From sequence record NC_054905.1: 64,000 nt of DNA. One strand, given 5' to 3'. The notes beneath the pieces are model-generated. The model did no database searches. It was given only the letters and a program-made list of their open reading frames with translations, and was not told the origin of the DNA. Numbering within the stretch: position 1 is the stretch's first letter; every line of letters begins with the position of its first letter. The position numbers and the translations under genes are program-made. Positions 8,409 through 61,252 of this stretch are shown piece after piece. Source of the stretch: Enterobacteria phage Kha5h.

Positions 8409-8416
8409 TATTTATA
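8409..8416 (-). promoter_or_regulatory. late promoter TATAAATA for soc
   Basis: Exact TATAAATA on minus strand ~30 nt upstream of soc ATG. Confidence 0.6.
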
Positions 8417-9263
8417 AACCATTTTCAAACCTCTTTATCATATTTATATAGTTTTCATCGGGATAACCTAGACTAACTGCTAACTTTCTAAAATTGACAT
8501 ATTTAGGTTTGTTGTTATTAATCCATAATTCTCTAAGCTCTTTTTCATAATTCCATTTAAGTTGATTTCTGCGTGCAGTTTTGCTTAAAGTTTTTCCTTT
8601 AGCTTTTAAAGCTTTTTCGGATGATTGTTTTAATTTTTGAATATTTAAAACTTCTTCTATAGATAAATTATTTTCCTTTGAATACCTTATGCAAAAATCT
8701 TTTACTACGGCTATTAGGCAATTTTTGTGAGTACCTAAAATTTCTGGGTTATTTTCTTCAACTAAAATTCCCCAATATCTTCGGTAGCGAGGCATATCCC
8801 TTGAAATCCAGTCATTATACCAAAAATCAAAGTTGGAATACATGAAAGATTTTCTTTTGCGAAGAGTATCTTGGTTTATCCATTGCTCACGTTTATCAGC
8901 CCATAACTTAATAGTAAAGTCTTTCTCTAAGTCAGAAAGCTTCTTAAATTGCGAGCTATTTACTGAGGTCATTCTCTGGAATGCATTCAGCAATCCAAAT
9001 CTTCCAGTTGAACATAAGAGATAGTGAACATATATGTGTTGATATATTGGGAGATATACTCTATTCCAAGGATATATTTTAAAATCACTATACTCAGGAA
9101 ATGCGCATTTAGGAAGTATATGATGGGCTTCTGTTTTAGATTTAATGTGAGTGTTTAACTTATACTTATCTATAATTTTTAAGTACTCATCTAAAAGTTC
9201 CCATTGCGGGAACTTTTCTTTAAGAGCAGATTTGAAATTAATATCCATTATCTTGACGTTCAA
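8412..9263 (-). CDS. HNH-family homing endonuclease (free-standing)
   Basis: AHHILPK ... WNRV ... QHIYVH (H-N-H); basic C-terminal tail; 5' end overlaps 3' end of gene 56. Confidence 0.6.
   Translation of the reverse strand: MNVKIMDINFKSALKEKFPQWELLDEYLKIIDKYKLNTHIKSKTEAHHILPKCAFPEYSDFKIYPWNRVYLPIYQHIYVHYLLCSTGRFGLLNAFQRMTSVNSSQFKKLSDLEKDFTIKLWADKREQWINQDTLRKRKSFMYSNFDFWYNDWISRDMPRYRRYWGILVEENNPEILGTHKNCLIAVVKDFCIRYSKENNLSIEEVLNIQKLKQSSEKALKAKGKTLSKTARRNQLKWNYEKELRELWINNNKPKYVNFRKLAVSLGYPDENYINMIKRFENGL
8441..8448 (-). promoter_or_regulatory. second late-promoter-like TATAAATA
   Basis: Exact octamer inside the 3' end of the HNH gene. Confidence 0.35.
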
Positions 9264-9756
9264 AATTATGTTTGTTCTTCAGATAATAAAGTTTAAAGAT
9301 TTCTTCAGCCGTAAGACCGAGACCTTGGAACATGTTCAGAACGAAATGAAGAATATCAATCATTTCGAATTTAATTTCCAACTGGTCTTGTGGAGACAAA
9401 TCAGTAATTAAAGTTTCACGACGTTCACCATGTTGAGCTTTCCAAGGCTTCCATACAGCAGATGCATCTTTTTCGCCATTGCTCATACCACCAAGAGAAG
9501 TCAATAGTTCGCGGAATTCATCATCAATATAATCTTTCTGATTACGCAGCCAATCAACAACTTCACCCGCAGTAGCCAAATCATCAGGATGACGGTTATA
9601 TTCAGGTTTATCTTTAGCTAAACGAACCTGAAGAGATTTCTGCATATCAAGCATAACTTGCAGCGGGTCTTTTTCATCACCGAGAATATCCCAGTATTCA
9701 TTTTGAGCTTTATCAGCGCCTTCAATCAGTTGACTACATTCGTTGAAATGTGGCAT
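9238..9756 (-). CDS. 56: dCTPase/dUTPase gp56
   Basis: 172 aa; recognised as T4 gp56; MotA-box middle promoter upstream. Confidence 0.85.
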   Translation of the reverse strand: MPHFNECSQLIEGADKAQNEYWDILGDEKDPLQVMLDMQKSLQVRLAKDKPEYNRHPDDLATAGEVVDWLRNQKDYIDDEFRELLTSLGGMSNGEKDASAVWKPWKAQHGERRETLITDLSPQDQLEIKFEMIDILHFVLNMFQGLGLTAEEIFKLYYLKNKHNFERQDNGY

Positions 9757-9792
9757 GTTATTTTTCCTTTCAATTCATGGGTTAGTAGATTA

Positions 9793-9816
9793 ATTATACA
9801 ATAAATATATAAAGCA
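9793..9816 (-). promoter_or_regulatory. middle promoter (MotA box TGCTTTA + TATAAT) for gene 56
   Basis: MotA-box-like sequence 11 nt from -10 on minus strand. Confidence 0.5.
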
Positions 9817-9829
9817 ATAAGGAGGACAT

Positions 9830-10030
9830 ATGGTACAAAAATTAATGGCACTTGTTAATGCCATAAAAGGTAATAAAAAGCGTATAGCTTTTACTATTTC
9901 TGCTATGGTAGGAATTTTACTCTGGAACTTTATTCTATCACCTGTTGCAATTGCGCATGGTATTAATATTCCAGTAGTTACTCTTGATACATTTGTAGAT
10001 TTAGCATTTGCTTTAGTTGGGTTGATTTAA
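9830..10030 (+). CDS. small hydrophobic protein (66 aa), plus strand
   Basis: Strong SD AAGGAGG 4 nt before ATG; predicted TM segments; stop overlaps gene 61 stop (TTAA). Confidence 0.45.
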   Translation: MVQKLMALVNAIKGNKKRIAFTISAMVGILLWNFILSPVAIAHGINIPVVTLDTFVDLAFALVGLI

Positions 10031-11055
10031 ATCTTAGCATATTTAGATAGCCGCATTTTAGCCATCAACCCCTGGGCAATATTATTTTTCATATATTCCA
10101 TAATTTGTTCAGGGGTTGCACCTTCCTTTCTAATCATATCATTGACATCTTTTGATTTCCAGGGAGATTTATCCCAAAACATAACCCTTTCTCCTGCATC
10201 AACTAATTTAGTCATTCGCTTAATAGTGTCAGGATGACGAGGTTCATTATCTAAAACCCACACACGTCTATCTTTAAATGGAACAACTTCTAGGTCTAAT
10301 TGACCACCCGTAATAGCTATACCATTTTCAATAAAAAGTGAATCTATAGGTCCTTCTAGAACATATACATCACCATCTTTAACTCGTTCGACTCCATAGA
10401 TTTTTGTTGCTTCAGGATAAGCTTTGATGGTGATATATTTTTGAGGAGCATCTTTCTTTAATGCACGTCCTTGAAAAGACTCAGCTTTTCCATTAGCATT
10501 ATAAATTGGAATAACAAGACGAGGCTCAGAAATTTCCTTTTTGTATGTTCCTGGTGCTATGCTATTAACTAATTTAGGCCATTCGGTTGTAAACCAAAGA
10601 TATTTCCATTTATCCTTTGGAATACAACGAGCTTTTACATATTTTATAATTGCATGGTCTTCCGCCAGTTTATCTAATCGAACACATGACGGAAGAGATT
10701 TAATTATTTTCTTCTCAGGTTGTTTAGGAAGTTCTTTAGGTTTTTCTACTGGACGACTTTTACCTTTTTCTTTTCTTATTTCAAAGATATACTCACGATA
10801 TAAATCAGGTTCAAACTCCTTTAAATATATTCCGATTGGTGCATGATAGTTACAGTTATAACAATGAATATTTCCTTCATTATTATCACCATAATACCAT
10901 CCACGAGCTTTATTCTGGTCGGTTTTTGAATCTCCACAAACAGGACATCTAAACCGTAATTTAAAAGTTGAACTATTATTTACTTGTGTGAATTTAGGTA
11001 AATGAGCTAATGCACGGTATGCAAACTCATTATCAATCCAAGGTATTGATGACAT
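10027..11055 (-). CDS. 61: DNA primase gp61
   Basis: 342 aa; zinc ribbon CPVCGDSK...CYNCNYH; recognised as T4 gp61. Confidence 0.9.
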   Translation of the reverse strand: MSSIPWIDNEFAYRALAHLPKFTQVNNSSTFKLRFRCPVCGDSKTDQNKARGWYYGDNNEGNIHCYNCNYHAPIGIYLKEFEPDLYREYIFEIRKEKGKSRPVEKPKELPKQPEKKIIKSLPSCVRLDKLAEDHAIIKYVKARCIPKDKWKYLWFTTEWPKLVNSIAPGTYKKEISEPRLVIPIYNANGKAESFQGRALKKDAPQKYITIKAYPEATKIYGVERVKDGDVYVLEGPIDSLFIENGIAITGGQLDLEVVPFKDRRVWVLDNEPRHPDTIKRMTKLVDAGERVMFWDKSPWKSKDVNDMIRKEGATPEQIMEYMKNNIAQGLMAKMRLSKYAKI

Positions 11056-11222: not shown

Positions 11223-11268
11223 ATTAACCTCTATTCATAAAAGCATTAAAAATTTGGTCATCAATAGA
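11216..11268. repeat. direct repeat copy A (3' end of 118-aa gene)
   Basis: CATATTAACCT(C)TATTCATAAAAGCATTAAAAATTTGGTCATCAATAGA. Confidence 0.8.
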
Positions 11269-11580
11269 TGGAATAGCAACCTTTTCGGCATCATTTAGCA
11301 AATCATTAATTTCATCAGATAGCATAACACATGTGCCTTTATTTCCTGTAATTGTTACTGCACAATTACGAACGTTTTCTTTATCAAATTTTAGGTTAAT
11401 ATTTTCGTAGTGAAAATCCTTTAATGCCGAATATATCTTTAAAATGAAATTGTCTTTTACTACAATAAACCCAACTTCACTATTAAAACGTGGTTCATGG
11501 AAACTGTAATAAACCTTTTCATCTATAAAATCGTATGAAATTTTTTCCATTTTTAAATATGAAAATTCAGAACTATACAT
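11224..11580 (-). CDS. hypothetical protein (118 aa)
   Basis: Track ORF; C-terminal 12 residues shared with next gene. Confidence 0.55.
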   Translation of the reverse strand: MYSSEFSYLKMEKISYDFIDEKVYYSFHEPRFNSEVGFIVVKDNFILKIYSALKDFHYENINLKFDKENVRNCAVTITGNKGTCVMLSDEINDLLNDAEKVAIPSIDDQIFNAFMNRG

Positions 11581-11626
11581 ATTAACCTTTATTCATAAAA
11601 GCATTAAAAATTTGGTCATCAATAGA
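11574..11626. repeat. direct repeat copy B (3' end of 208-aa gene)
   Basis: One mismatch to copy A over ~50 bp. Confidence 0.8.
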
Positions 11627-12208
11627 AACATTTACTTTAGACTGTTTTTCAGATGGCAATTCATATCCACATATTACAATTTTATGATCAATATTAAAAT
11701 ACACAGAAGCAATATGATTAATGATATTTTCAGTGAAGTCTAAATCGACATCAATATCTTTTTGACCAAAGCCCAAAGGATAAATAATGCGAGTAATTCG
11801 ATTATCTTTAACAAAGATTCCACCGACATACTCTGTACTGCGTTTAAAGTCTACACGCCGACGAAATGAAAAATATTCAGGCTCTCTATGAGCTCGGCTC
11901 ATAGGACACAACGAGTAACTAGAATAAGAGATGTCAAATCCTACACCTTCGATATGAGCCAAAGTGTTATGATTAAACCAATTATAATCGTACGCCAAAT
12001 CCATTAGATTATAATATGTAAAAGGCACCGGATTAACATCATTAGTCACAAGCATATAATTAGCAACTGCTATAATTTCATTGTTTTTAACGAATACAAA
12101 CCGTGATTGATGCGAATGACCTGGACCCGCGTTTTCACGATTAATGATATAACACTGGGCACCTTTATATTTGTATGTATCTTTGCACTTGTGCATTTGA
12201 TAGAGCAT
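11582..12208 (-). CDS. hypothetical protein (208 aa)
   Basis: Track ORF; C-terminus SIDDQIFNAFMNKG duplicated in neighbour. Confidence 0.55.
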   Translation of the reverse strand: MLYQMHKCKDTYKYKGAQCYIINRENAGPGHSHQSRFVFVKNNEIIAVANYMLVTNDVNPVPFTYYNLMDLAYDYNWFNHNTLAHIEGVGFDISYSSYSLCPMSRAHREPEYFSFRRRVDFKRSTEYVGGIFVKDNRITRIIYPLGFGQKDIDVDLDFTENIINHIASVYFNIDHKIVICGYELPSEKQSKVNVSIDDQIFNAFMNKG

Positions 12209-17697: not shown

Positions 17698-17829
17698 TTA
17701 AATTGTAACAGTAATAAACCCCACCCCTATGATAAGAGTTGGAATCATAGCAGGAACTGTTACGCTATAGTATATACTTATTATAACCATCAAGATTAAA
17801 AGCAACACTGTTATAATTTTGCTTTTCAT
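17698..17829 (-). CDS. small hydrophobic peptide (43 aa) below track cutoff
   Basis: ATG overlaps imm stop (ATGA); MKSKIITVLLLILMVIISIYYSVTVPAMIPTLIIGVGFITVTI. Confidence 0.35.
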   Translation of the reverse strand: MKSKIITVLLLILMVIISIYYSVTVPAMIPTLIIGVGFITVTI

Positions 17830-18077
17830 TCTTTCTCTCTGATGATAATTACCTGATTTGGCTGTGCAGACTTTTTAGTTTCACCAGCAATTGACCAAAT
17901 AAATGTAATAAACCAACCAATAATTGACCAGTTAAACAGTAAAGATGTGAAAAAGATTCCTACTGTCGATTTTGACCCACGCATCAAGGCGATAAACCAT
18001 GGAAGCATGTATATAATAATAGCCAACACACCTGAAACTAAAACCATAAAAATTGAACCTGCTACTAAAGTTTCCAT
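17826..18077 (-). CDS. imm: superinfection immunity protein Imm
   Basis: 83 aa, two TM helices; recognised as T4 Imm. Confidence 0.85.
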   Translation of the reverse strand: METLVAGSIFMVLVSGVLAIIIYMLPWFIALMRGSKSTVGIFFTSLLFNWSIIGWFITFIWSIAGETKKSAQPNQVIIIREKE

Positions 18078-25192: not shown

Positions 25193-25209
25193 GTTTTTCC
25201 TCCATAGAG

Positions 25210-25233
25210 ATTATACTCTAATAAATTAAAGCA
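25210..25233 (-). promoter_or_regulatory. middle promoter (MotA box + TATAAT)
   Basis: TGCTTTA then 12 nt then TATAAT; upstream of 25004..25192 and rpbA. Confidence 0.5.
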
Positions 25234-25247
25234 TAATCTCTTATAAA

Positions 25248-31828: not shown

Positions 31829-32155
31829 TTATACCTTAGTAATTTTCAGGTCTGCAAATTTTTTCTTGCGTTGATTTTTCATGCGACGAATAGTTTTATC
31901 GGAAATTTCATGCTTTTGATAAGCTTTAGATTCTACGCCAAAAGCTTTAACATCAAATTCCGACAAGATATATTGAACCAGCAATTCACGGACAGTATTA
32001 CGTCCAATCTTCTGATCATTCTGTTTCATCGTCTGATGAAGCTCTTTTTCCCATTTATCCAAAATTTGAGGAGTTACAATATCGCCTTTTTCTAGCAAAG
32101 AAACTACTTTATCATATGCGTAAGAATTAATGACGTTTTTAATTTGAATAGTCAT
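31829..32155 (-). CDS. hypothetical protein
   Basis: Track ORF 108 aa. Confidence 0.45.
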   Translation of the reverse strand: MTIQIKNVINSYAYDKVVSLLEKGDIVTPQILDKWEKELHQTMKQNDQKIGRNTVRELLVQYILSEFDVKAFGVESKAYQKHEISDKTIRRMKNQRKKKFADLKITKV

Positions 32156-32193
32156 ACATTATCCTCAATTGCATTAAAATTTTATTATCCAAA

Positions 32194-32209
32194 AAGGGCC
32201 GAAGCCCTT
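32194..32209 (-). terminator. tetraloop hairpin
   Basis: AAGGGC-CGAA-GCCCTT. Confidence 0.5.
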
Positions 32210-32408
32210 AGCTAAACCGTTTGGCACCCTTCCAGCCTTCATACATCATTGCGGCTGATATTAATATTGCTCCTGAGCAACTTGAATATTTGTGATTCCA
32301 AAACCAGTTTAGAAAAACTTCGTCATCAATACCTTGGGCTATCATATTTTCAAAGAACTGACGACGAGCTTCGGCAATTCGCTGCGATAATTTAGATTCA
32401 GGATTCAT
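32208..32408 (-). CDS. hypothetical small protein
   Basis: Track ORF 66 aa. Confidence 0.4.
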   Translation of the reverse strand: MNPESKLSQRIAEARRQFFENMIAQGIDDEVFLNWFWNHKYSSCSGAILISAAMMYEGWKGAKRFS

Positions 32409-32624
32409 TTAAATTTTCCAGTTACCATTTTCATCAATAAATTTAATCCAGTCATTTACTGACCACTTAGTTGTATCGCCTTTTGGAGTAACATTTAAAG
32501 TGTATAACCCCTGCTTAAAAAGCATTCGTTTGATATTCATATTTTCCTCAGCTGTAACGATAACACTCGTTTGATTTGCGCTTAGCAACTCGTTGAGATG
32601 TATTATAATCAAAATCATCGTCAA
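32409..32624 (-). CDS. hypothetical small protein
   Basis: Track ORF 71 aa. Confidence 0.4.
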   Translation of the reverse strand: MTMILIIIHLNELLSANQTSVIVTAEENMNIKRMLFKQGLYTLNVTPKGDTTKWSVNDWIKFIDENGNWKI

Positions 32625-32880
32625 TGTAAACTGATTTTTTCAACTTTCTTACTTCACCACGTAATTGGCGATTTAGCTCATCTTTAACTTCTGAATCAAT
32701 ACCTTTCATTCTACGCCATTTATCTGAGCGAAAAATGTTTTCAACCATATCTTTATGACTTACCCCATCAGGAGCTTTACGCTTTCCGAAATAGTCATAA
32801 TCACGCACTTTTAAGTCTTTACGACGATACGTTTTACCCATGGAGTTTAATTTCCTTAGCAACTGAACTAAATGCAGCAC
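32548..32880 (-). CDS. hypothetical basic protein (start probably internal)
   Basis: Track ORF; overlaps both neighbours. Confidence 0.4.
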   Translation of the reverse strand: MLHLVQLLRKLNSMGKTYRRKDLKVRDYDYFGKRKAPDGVSHKDMVENIFRSDKWRRMKGIDSEVKDELNRQLRGEVRKLKKSVYIDDDFDYNTSQRVAKRKSNECYRYS

Positions 32881-36568: not shown

Positions 36569-36617
36569 AATAAAACCCTTACCTTAAATAGATAAGGGTA
36601 TTTATTATTTTCAAGTA

Positions 36618-49724: not shown

Positions 49725-49937
49725 TCATTTTTGTCCTGTATTTACTTTATGCCGATGCACGGCCTTAACTTTATCAAGGTATTTTTCAAAATTTCGCAAT
49801 CTAGTATAGTCTGCCGGAGATTGGTTGAGTGATACTTCTCGACGCAAAGCTGAAATGATATTTCCAACTTCCCTACGAATTTCATCTAATTGAAGCACAG
49901 TAAGATTGCGAAGTTGCTTTTCAGTTAATTGTAGCAT
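49725..49937 (-). CDS. hypothetical small protein
   Basis: Track ORF 70 aa. Confidence 0.45.
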
Positions 49938-56300: not shown

Positions 56301-57541
<1,241 letters not shown>

Positions 57542-60778: not shown

Positions 60779-61252
60779 TTATTTGATTTGTTTAGCAGAC
60801 CAAATGCGGTCTTTAATAATTTTTTGAATGTCTTCAACATACTCAAGAGAGTGAGCATGTGGGTTATCTTTGAAACTATAAGCACGAGCCAGTTTTTGGC
60901 CTTCAGTTTTGATTACTAAAAGCTCTTTAAGGATAGCTTCATATCTGGAGATAATTCCTTTAACAATATTTTTCTCTTGTGCGACTTTAGGATCTGCTTT
61001 AGGAGCAGGTTTACCCGAAGCCTTTGCAAAAGCAGCGCCAGTAGCAACTAAACTTTTCCAAGCCATACTAACTGCATTCCCTGTAAATCCTTCGGCTTTC
61101 ATATCACGAGCAAATTGGAATCGTGATTCATCGGAAGCATCTTTATAGGAATATTTACCCGCGGCAATGGCTGCTTTTGCGACAGCTTGAATTTCGGTGC
61201 TAGATGCTTCATTTAACACCGCTTCATTTAAAAATTGAGCATATGATTTCAT
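60779..61252 (-). CDS. internal-protein-like packaged protein
   Basis: 157 aa; N-terminus MKSYAQFLNEA; late promoter upstream; hairpins on both sides. Confidence 0.55.
   Translation of the reverse strand: MKSYAQFLNEAVLNEASSTEIQAVAKAAIAAGKYSYKDASDESRFQFARDMKAEGFTGNAVSMAWKSLVATGAAFAKASGKPAPKADPKVAQEKNIVKGIISRYEAILKELLVIKTEGQKLARAYSFKDNPHAHSLEYVEDIQKIIKDRIWSAKQIK

Follow-up and report, generated by a model that had tools for sequence, protein, structure and literature searches.

dam.1, a conserved small gene beside the primase gene of T-even-type phages, probably encodes a late inner-membrane microprotein

The closest described relatives of the gene reported on here are dam.1 of bacteriophage T4, a name given in the T4T record HM137666 (T4Tp032), and RB69ORF029w of phage RB69, whose product has been predicted to carry one transmembrane segment (residues 21-41) and no signal peptide (PMC1524935 supplement). 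Our study concerns their counterpart in a stretch of 64,000 nucleotides from Enterobacteria phage Kha5h (NC_054905.1), hereafter the window, which is the early/replication region of a T4-like phage of the genus Tequatrovirus in the standard T4 orientation, with nearly all of its genes on the minus strand. The plus-strand open reading frame (ORF) at 9830..10030 is dam.1, a gene of the Tevenvirinae; it is real, conserved and already catalogued, and is not novel. It matches T4 dam.1 and RB69ORF029w in its length, its position between gene 56 (or dam) and gene 61, its plus-strand orientation, its overlapping stop, its Shine-Dalgarno (SD) sequence and an upstream ATAAATA; the RB69-type copy is about 55% identical to the window protein. 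In the window dam.1 has gene 56 immediately upstream, in T4 it has dam, and the promoter region of dam.1 overlaps the gene 56 MotA promoter in the former and the dam upstream region in the latter; nothing material differs. From the comparisons presented below we consider it likely that dam.1 encodes a single-pass microprotein of the inner membrane, made late in infection, which may act at the cell envelope.

The gene and its conservation

The following features define the locus in the window:

9830..10030, plus strand: dam.1 coding sequence, 66 residues and a stop; PHROG 2024; equivalent to RB32ORF030w and RB69ORF029w
9819-9825, plus strand: SD sequence AAGGAGG, ending 4 nucleotides (nt) ahead of the dam.1 ATG
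9238..9756, minus strand: gene 56 (dCTPase/dUTPase, 172 residues), the divergent neighbour; PHROG 173, E 7.8e-47; synteny with T4 and RB51
10027..11055, minus strand: gene 61 (DNA primase, 342 residues), the convergent neighbour; PHROG 47, E 1.5e-105

The ORF opens with the ATG at 9830 and closes with the TAA at 10028-10030, giving the 66-residue product MVQKLMALVNAIKGNKKRIAFTISAMVGILLWNFILSPVAIAHGINIPVVTLDTFVDLAFALVGLI. An earlier note, made from the letters of the window, had placed a small plus-strand membrane-protein ORF at 9757-10030, with a near-consensus SD and a stop that shares a TTAA with the stop of gene 61; the ORF itself occupies the 9830..10030 portion, its coding status follows from comparison, and both signals are where the note had them, the stops overlapping at 10027-10030. 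Gene 56 begins at 9756 on the minus strand, and 73 nt (9757-9829) separate its start from that of dam.1.

A 66-codon ORF is by itself unremarkable in this AT-rich window, where plus-strand ORFs of 60-100 codons are common, and the evidence for a gene is therefore comparative. On that evidence dam.1 is almost certainly a real coding gene. The ratio of nonsynonymous to synonymous substitution rates (dN/dS) is 0.08-0.15 for pairs within Tequatrovirus; for pairs from different genera, whose synonymous sites are saturated (dS >1), it spans 0.08-0.4. Differences are most frequent at the third codon position, then the first, then the second. The overlap of dam.1 with gene 61 is limited to the stop, and the conservation is therefore not borrowed from another frame. 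All genera fetched have an unbroken ORF of 63-74 codons; the frame is kept in eight genera, always convergent with the primase gene, and the place and plus-strand orientation are retained in Tequatro-, Mosig-, Gapriver-, Dhaka-, Marfa-, Gelderland- and Kanagawavirus. The last small ORF and the primase gene share a 4-nt stop overlap in Tequatrovirus, Mosigvirus, Gaprivervirus UPEC01 (copy 2), Marfavirus, Dhakavirus, Kosakonia phage 305 and PEi20; Q7622 has a 24-nt overlap, and CGG4-1 has none.

The product aligns over residues 2-66 with positions 1-65 of the 65 in PHROG 2024 (E 1.4e-31), a family of unknown function and the only one that the PHROG search of Dam.1 returned. A tblastn search over the phage collection found dam.1 in 691 records, of which 685 cover at least 80% of the query; 501 are at least 90% identical, and 190 are Mosigvirus or Gaprivervirus copies at 44-57%. 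A profile search added a second subfamily (MGT[LI]FYQIWKL...), about 20% identical to the window protein and carried by Dhakavirus IME08, Marfavirus, Klebsiella T4-like phages, Gelderlandvirus CGG4-1 and Kanagawavirus (Q7622, Kosakonia 305, PEi20). Its members resemble the window protein in size, place, orientation, a W-N...P....G...P core, a basic N-terminus, a single transmembrane segment and an upstream TATAAATA, and differ from it in a polar C-terminal segment (EH..S, rather than hydrophobic/acidic) and an Asp within the transmembrane segment. Trp32, Asn33, Pro38 and Gly44 are invariant in both subfamilies, and Pro48, Val50 and Gly64 nearly so. A HMMER search of 1.84 billion representative proteins gave nine hits, all of them family members or long repetitive proteins, and brought up no credible homologue from elsewhere; every named family member retrieved comes from a T-even-type phage of enterobacteria.

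Gaprivervirus genomes carry two tandem genes of the family, a copy of subfamily 1 followed after 8 nt by a copy of subfamily 2 without an ATAAATA of its own. The second copy is intact in UPEC01 (locus L008, 1701..1901) and in loci L013 and L014 (2701..2901 in each), and is frameshifted or truncated in some other genomes (L006, L007, L016); in DK-13 a homing endonuclease lies between it and the primase gene.

The standing of dam.1 in the databases is uneven. The T4 copy, at 17738..17938(+) in NC_000866 (3239..3439 of the fetched locus L001), is 97% identical to that of the window with two amino acid differences, and fills the 309-nt 'gap' between dam and gene 61; it is intact but unannotated in the T4 reference records NC_000866.4 and AF158101.6. 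Several newer T4 and T2 records call it 'hypothetical protein', as do all 259 contigs that encode the exact window protein, and RB51 lists it as 'RB32ORF030w, similar to RB69ORF029w' (also RB51ORF032). Some entries of the family bear unvalidated or mistransferred names, namely 'DNA packaging ATPase' (UPEC01, SAKp28, EI, MY02), 'dCTP pyrophosphatase' (CGG4-1, dhaeg) and 'Holin' (OE5505). A literature search under RB69ORF029w, RB32ORF030w and dam.1 found no paper that mentions the gene; in the library searched it found no ribosome-profiling or transcription-start-site mapping study of T4, and the T4 multi-omics paper is silent on the locus. A gene conserved in eight T-even-type genera, and under selection there, is thus missing from the canonical T4 records, and proteomic, transcriptomic and CRISPR interference (CRISPRi) work built on the T4 reference annotation will miss it. 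Current understanding is not overturned, and dam.1 is an ordinary but under-studied gene; the evidence for a conserved, probably late gene left out of that annotation may be the useful contribution of this analysis.

The earlier note had found no gene of the size of dam between genes 56 and 61 of the window, had stated that T4 has dam there, and had implied that the small ORF goes with the absence of dam. The T4 record does show dam between 56 and 61, and the 73-nt interval in the window is too short for the 259-residue Dam. A tblastn search with T4 Dam (259 residues) gave no match anywhere in the 64 kb of the window (best E 0.68); nor is there a homolog in the complete genome of RB51 (168 kb; best E 0.87; no annotated methyltransferase), a relative that is 95.9% identical over 60 kb of the window and carries dam.1. 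The implied link between the ORF and the absence of dam fails when the 56-61 junction is compared among phages, as the note had proposed: the same ORF stands beside dam in T4, T4T and Shigella phage SH_GT, the last of which annotates both genes, and also in T2-like phages and others, so that it is conserved in dam-positive phages such as T4, T2 and SH_GT, an outcome that the note had named as refuting it. T4-type Dam at 90% identity or more occurs in about 182 records, compared with the 501 that hold dam.1 at this level.

Between gene 56 and dam.1 lies an insertion hot spot. The window and RB51 have nothing in this slot; T4 has dam, T2-like phages have dam and another insert of some 540 bp, Yersinia phages fPS-2/PYPS2T have a homing endonuclease, IME08 has MobE, and Marfa has two hypothetical genes. 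Homology between phages with and without dam breaks just upstream of the dam.1 ribosome-binding site. From the varied content of the slot and the position of this break, the sequence comparison therefore shows that the slot is prone to recombination, that dam is in it as an optional cassette and not as a fixed resident of the 56-61 interval, and that dam.1 belongs to the primase side of the junction and is independent of dam.

A predicted late promoter

The octamer TATAAATA at -13 to -6 is the promoter read by the T4 late sigma factor gp55 (PMC2988020; PMC1524935). Among 50 listed T4 late promoters 32 are perfect and nine have A at -13 (PMC2988020), a base that is poorly conserved among T4 relatives (PMC2988020; PMC1524935). 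An element of this type, which has no -35 requirement, lies directly upstream of dam.1:

9800-9807, plus strand: predicted gp55-type late promoter AATAAATA, the TATAAATA consensus with A at -13
9813, plus strand: predicted late transcription start, which puts the motif at -13..-6 and leaves a 17-nt leader

ATAAATA is found 15-22 nt upstream of the ATG in 10 of the 11 lineage or context comparisons in which the gene has an upstream region of its own. It is kept in three upstream contexts within Tequatrovirus and in five other genera, and the DNA that flanks it is unalignable both between genera and among those three contexts. Marfa, IME08, Q7622 and Kosakonia 305 have a perfect TATAAATA; the octamer reads AATAAATA in the window and Mosigvirus, T4 has GATAAATA, and Gaprivervirus and PEi20 have CATAAATA. 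The 22-nt intergenic space of Kosakonia phage 305 consists wholly of the late motif and the SD. The promoterless second Gaprivervirus copy has a weaker SD, GGTGG, and a GGAGG- or GGAG-type SD is kept in the other 10, promoter-bearing, comparisons.

The motif is also rare in the window. Counting both strands, there are 13 ATAAATA sites where shuffled sequences lead one to expect 40.3 +/- 6.7, a depletion of about threefold (examples are 8409-8415, 36599-36605 and 57081-57100, all on the minus strand), and 7 of the 13 fall 13-36 nt upstream of an SD and ATG. The genes so preceded are dam.1, soc, endonuclease VII (gene 49), lysozyme e and two small ORFs of unknown function. Soc, gene 49 and e are classical late-promoter genes with experimentally mapped late transcripts. 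The late promoter of soc is annotated in record X01416. With these T4 genes dam.1 shares a late motif 13-36 nt ahead of SD and ATG, a short leader and a motif that is otherwise purged from the region; it differs in that they lie on the minus strand with their neighbours and have mapped transcripts, whereas dam.1 is on the opposite strand and its late transcript is predicted. From the conserved motif, its depletion elsewhere and the known late genes that share it, we therefore infer that dam.1 is late and starts near 9813, and we think it rather likely that the predicted promoter at 9800-9807 is used. If so, dam.1 would belong to the very small number of late genes whose transcription opposes that of the early replication cluster around them. 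The two small ORFs, at 49725..49937 and 60779..61252, are likewise preceded by ATAAATA and an SD, which suggests that they too may be late genes.

Two elements on the opposite strand overlap or adjoin the dam.1 signals:

9793..9819, minus strand: putative MotA-dependent middle promoter for gene 56, with a TAT-TGCTTTA box (9819->9810), an 11-nt spacer and TATAAT (9798->9793)
9845..9864, minus strand: terminator-like hairpin ATGGCATTAACAAGTGCCAT followed by the T-run TAATTTTTGT, inside dam.1 codons 6-12; candidate terminator of gene 61

The first agrees with the description of a middle promoter, (a/t)3TGCTTtA about 12 bp upstream of a TAnnnT -10 element, from 9819 to 9793. Its T4 counterpart, TTGCTTA-N-TATAAT, lies between dam and 56 and is annotated 'mot-box of promoter P(M) 16.53' in X01416, and the promoter probably also gives the oriA primer. 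The earlier note had put a MotA promoter of gene 56 over the ribosome-binding region of the ORF; the promoter is indeed present on the other strand, but it abuts the SD rather than covering it, and what it covers is the predicted plus-strand promoter and start site. The late core at 9800-9807 sits within its 11-nt spacer, and as judged from this layout RNA polymerase complexes cannot occupy the MotA promoter and the late core simultaneously. Sense/antisense interference, which the note had raised, is possible on this arrangement; the promoters are of different classes, middle and presumptively late, and the overlap may therefore be simple temporal sharing. In T4 dam separates the MotA promoter from the late core, which overlaps a putative early dam promoter instead.

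A scan of the window found no plus-strand terminator after the dam.1 ORF, and late transcripts should therefore run on antisense into gene 61. The minus-strand hairpin could, from its sequence, terminate transcription of gene 61 about 165 nt beyond the stop codon of that gene and inside dam.1. It is present in the window and T4 (Tequatrovirus) and absent from other genera, and we rejected it as a conserved element of the dam.1 unit for this Tequatrovirus-only distribution. No conserved sigma-70 promoter for dam.1 was found in scans of the window, T4, Mosigvirus and other genera.

The product and its possible role

The first 18 residues of Dam.1, for which a helix is predicted, include five Lys or Arg and not one acidic residue. 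The following segment, residues ~19-41, is the sole one that is hydrophobic in every lineage, and is marginally so; it is rich in Gly, Ala and Ser in Mosigvirus and contains an Asp in subfamily 2. In Tequatrovirus the last 18 residues are hydrophobic and include two Asp; in subfamily 2 and Kanagawavirus they are polar. The two hydrophobic segments of the earlier note thus stand for the window protein, at residues 19-42 and 47-66, but the first alone is hydrophobic family-wide, and what the family keeps is one transmembrane helix and probably not two membrane spans. The AlphaFold model, built on a 32-sequence alignment (mean predicted local distance difference test score, pLDDT, 79), has helices at 2-12, 16-42 and 52-63, and the last of these is too short to cross a bilayer. 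Under the positive-inside rule the N-terminal basic residues make N-in/C-out the best reading, with a periplasmic tail of about 24 residues, and this single-pass topology is the one that we regard as probable.

Searches for a function by homology gave nothing. Pfam (E up to 10) and NCBIfam returned no hits for Dam.1, a PDB profile search yielded only noise (E ~0.8), Foldseek of the AlphaFold model against BFVD found family members only, and hhalign of the family profile against the T4-type RI and Imm of the window detected no similarity. The T4 RI antiholin, class II/III holins and the pinholin S21-68 resemble Dam.1 in size, in a marginal N-proximal transmembrane segment, in predicted late timing and in a short periplasmic part; they show no sequence or profile similarity to it, and Dam.1 lacks a charged C-terminal tail and a lysis cassette. 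The likeness to small lysis-control membrane proteins is, by this analogy, one of kind only. The gene would be among the few conserved T4 membrane microproteins without a phenotype.

Our comparative data, coupled with the promoter and topology predictions, suggest a model for the expression and placement of Dam.1. Late in infection gp55-RNA polymerase would transcribe dam.1 from the (N)ATAAATA promoter at 9800-9807, starting near 9813, and the leader of about 17 nt would carry the strong SD. The product would insert in the inner membrane as a single-pass protein, with its basic N-terminal amphipathic helix (five Lys or Arg in the first 18 residues) remaining in the cytoplasm and its marginally hydrophobic transmembrane helix (~residues 19-41) holding the invariant Trp32-Asn33 and Pro38; the outside tail of about 24 residues would comprise the invariant Gly44, the near-invariant Pro48 and a short acidic helix. 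Dam.1 may then act at the cell envelope late in infection, a step drawn from timing and location only. From the same two considerations an accessory role in lysis timing or envelope integrity, non-essential in the laboratory, is the most plausible class of function, and we offer it tentatively, as something well short of an even chance. Bolder, and doubtful, is the notion that Dam.1 is an overlooked late envelope factor of enterobacterial T-even phages, for example one that partners or modulates the lysis-inhibition machinery of the T holin and RI, or one that protects the inner membrane while heads are assembled, and that its late transcription could also silence the back-to-back oriA/gene 56 promoter and run antisense into the primase gene.

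Several observations weigh against this reading. At the promoter, Gelderlandvirus CGG4-1 has only a near-match, TATTAAATA, and position -13 is A, G or C and not T in Tequatro-, Mosig- and Gaprivervirus; the in vivo relative strengths of variant late promoters are unknown (PMC2988020), and the hidden Markov model scan of RB69 by Nolan et al. listed no late promoter here. The conservation of the motif could partly reflect overlapping minus-strand promoters. The literature search found no transcript, 5' end, peptide or phenotype for dam.1. As regards topology, the C-terminal segment has a mean Kyte-Doolittle value of 2.05 in Tequatrovirus, which makes a helical hairpin possible for subfamily 1; as regards an envelope or lysis role, there is the lack of similarity to RI or Imm, and dam.1 does not adjoin t, e, rI or the spanin genes.

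Among other explanations of the gene product, that Dam.1 is an early or middle membrane protein of superinfection exclusion or anti-defence, similar in kind to Imm or Sp and expressed from a sigma-70 promoter with ATAAATA conserved for some other reason, appears unlikely. Most small membrane proteins of this region in T4-type phages are early, such as imm, sp and ac, and a weak TTCATG-N17-TACAAT can be read at 9775-9803 of the window; this site falls below the scan threshold and has no conserved counterpart in T4, Mosigvirus or other genera, upstream conservation is limited to the SD and the late motif, and early and middle transcription in T4 all runs in the opposite direction (PMC2988020). 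That Dam.1 forms pores as a holin or pinholin would, accumulating late and permeabilising the inner membrane, is quite unlikely, although it is small, hydrophobic and predicted late, with at least one transmembrane segment (residues ~19-41) that is marginal, Gly/Ala/Ser-rich in Mosigvirus and Asp-containing in subfamily 2, as in domains of the signal-anchor-release (SAR) type. The 'Holin' name on the phage OE5505 orthologue (UniProt A0A482MZV5 / P0025) is an unvalidated submitter or pipeline label on one of hundreds of entries, the others being 'hypothetical protein'; Pfam, NCBIfam and PHROG give no holin match. The protein has a single conserved transmembrane segment and no highly charged, basic C-terminal cytoplasmic domain: its C-terminus is hydrophobic/acidic in subfamily 1 or polar in subfamily 2, with one Arg in the Kanagawavirus copies and no basic residue elsewhere. 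Nor is the gene in a lysis cassette, its neighbours being those for dCTPase and primase; lysozyme gene e lies at ~56.6 kb in the window, t and the spanin genes of RB51 lie away from dam.1, and dam.1 does not adjoin the endolysin gene. A T holin is, moreover, already encoded (RB51 t). T is the lysis-timing holin by established T4 genetics.

Two further explanations would dispense with the protein. The plus-strand RNA might itself be functional, as a late antisense transcript that pairs with the 3' end or 3' untranslated region of the gene 61 mRNA or occludes the gene 56 MotA promoter, the ORF being incidental. The convergent overlapping stops without a plus-strand terminator beyond them, the position of the ORF wholly between the gene 61 stop and the minus-strand terminator-like hairpin, and the late core inside the MotA promoter spacer would all suit such an RNA, and T4 transcribes both strands at some sites at different times (PMC2988020). 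It leaves unaccounted for, however, the conservation at the amino acid level between genera whose synonymous sites are saturated (dS >1), the SD and ATG kept everywhere and the motifs that are invariant across subfamilies of ~20% identity; the overlap with the MotA promoter is absent from dam-positive phages such as T4, and an antisense side-effect could coexist with a protein function. We hold it improbable, and treat antisense effects as possible side-effects that cannot explain conservation of the amino acid sequence. That the ORF is a chance one in intergenic or gene 61 3' untranslated DNA, or a filler that replaces dam, without a product, is barely tenable: its frequency class in the window and its omission from the T4 reference records would allow this, but the comparative data already contradict it, with dN/dS well under 1, the frame kept in 685 of 691 records and in eight genera, and the gene standing beside dam in T4, T2 and others and annotated in T4T and most modern records. 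The late membrane-protein reading is the one that we retain.

Other genes of the window

The earlier note had called the ORF the only convincing plus-strand gene of the 64 kb, and this held when seven other plus-strand ORFs of at least 60 residues (the longest, together with those in gaps or rivalling minus-strand ORFs) were scanned: none had a PHROG match, and two of the seven overlap minus-strand ORFs that do. In RB51 (NC_012635) the early region has a second plus-strand gene, at 31961..32674(+), which lies between 45.2 and 46 and encodes a mobB-like homing endonuclease. The corresponding place in the window is just a 55-nt gap (25193-25247), and dam.1 is therefore the only supported plus-strand gene in the window.

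Downstream of gene 56, in the position of the GIY-YIG segF of T4, the window carries at 8412..9263(-) a 283-residue homing endonuclease of the HNH type (PHROG 655), whose coding sequence shares 26 nt with the 3' end of gene 56. Beyond the primase gene there is an extra 118-residue ORF at 11224..11580(-), of the RB32ORF033c type, adjoining 61.2 at 11582..12208(-). The two have a C-terminal SIDDQIFNAFMN(R/K)G in common, which makes the 118-residue ORF an apparent partial duplication of 61.2, without a counterpart in T4.

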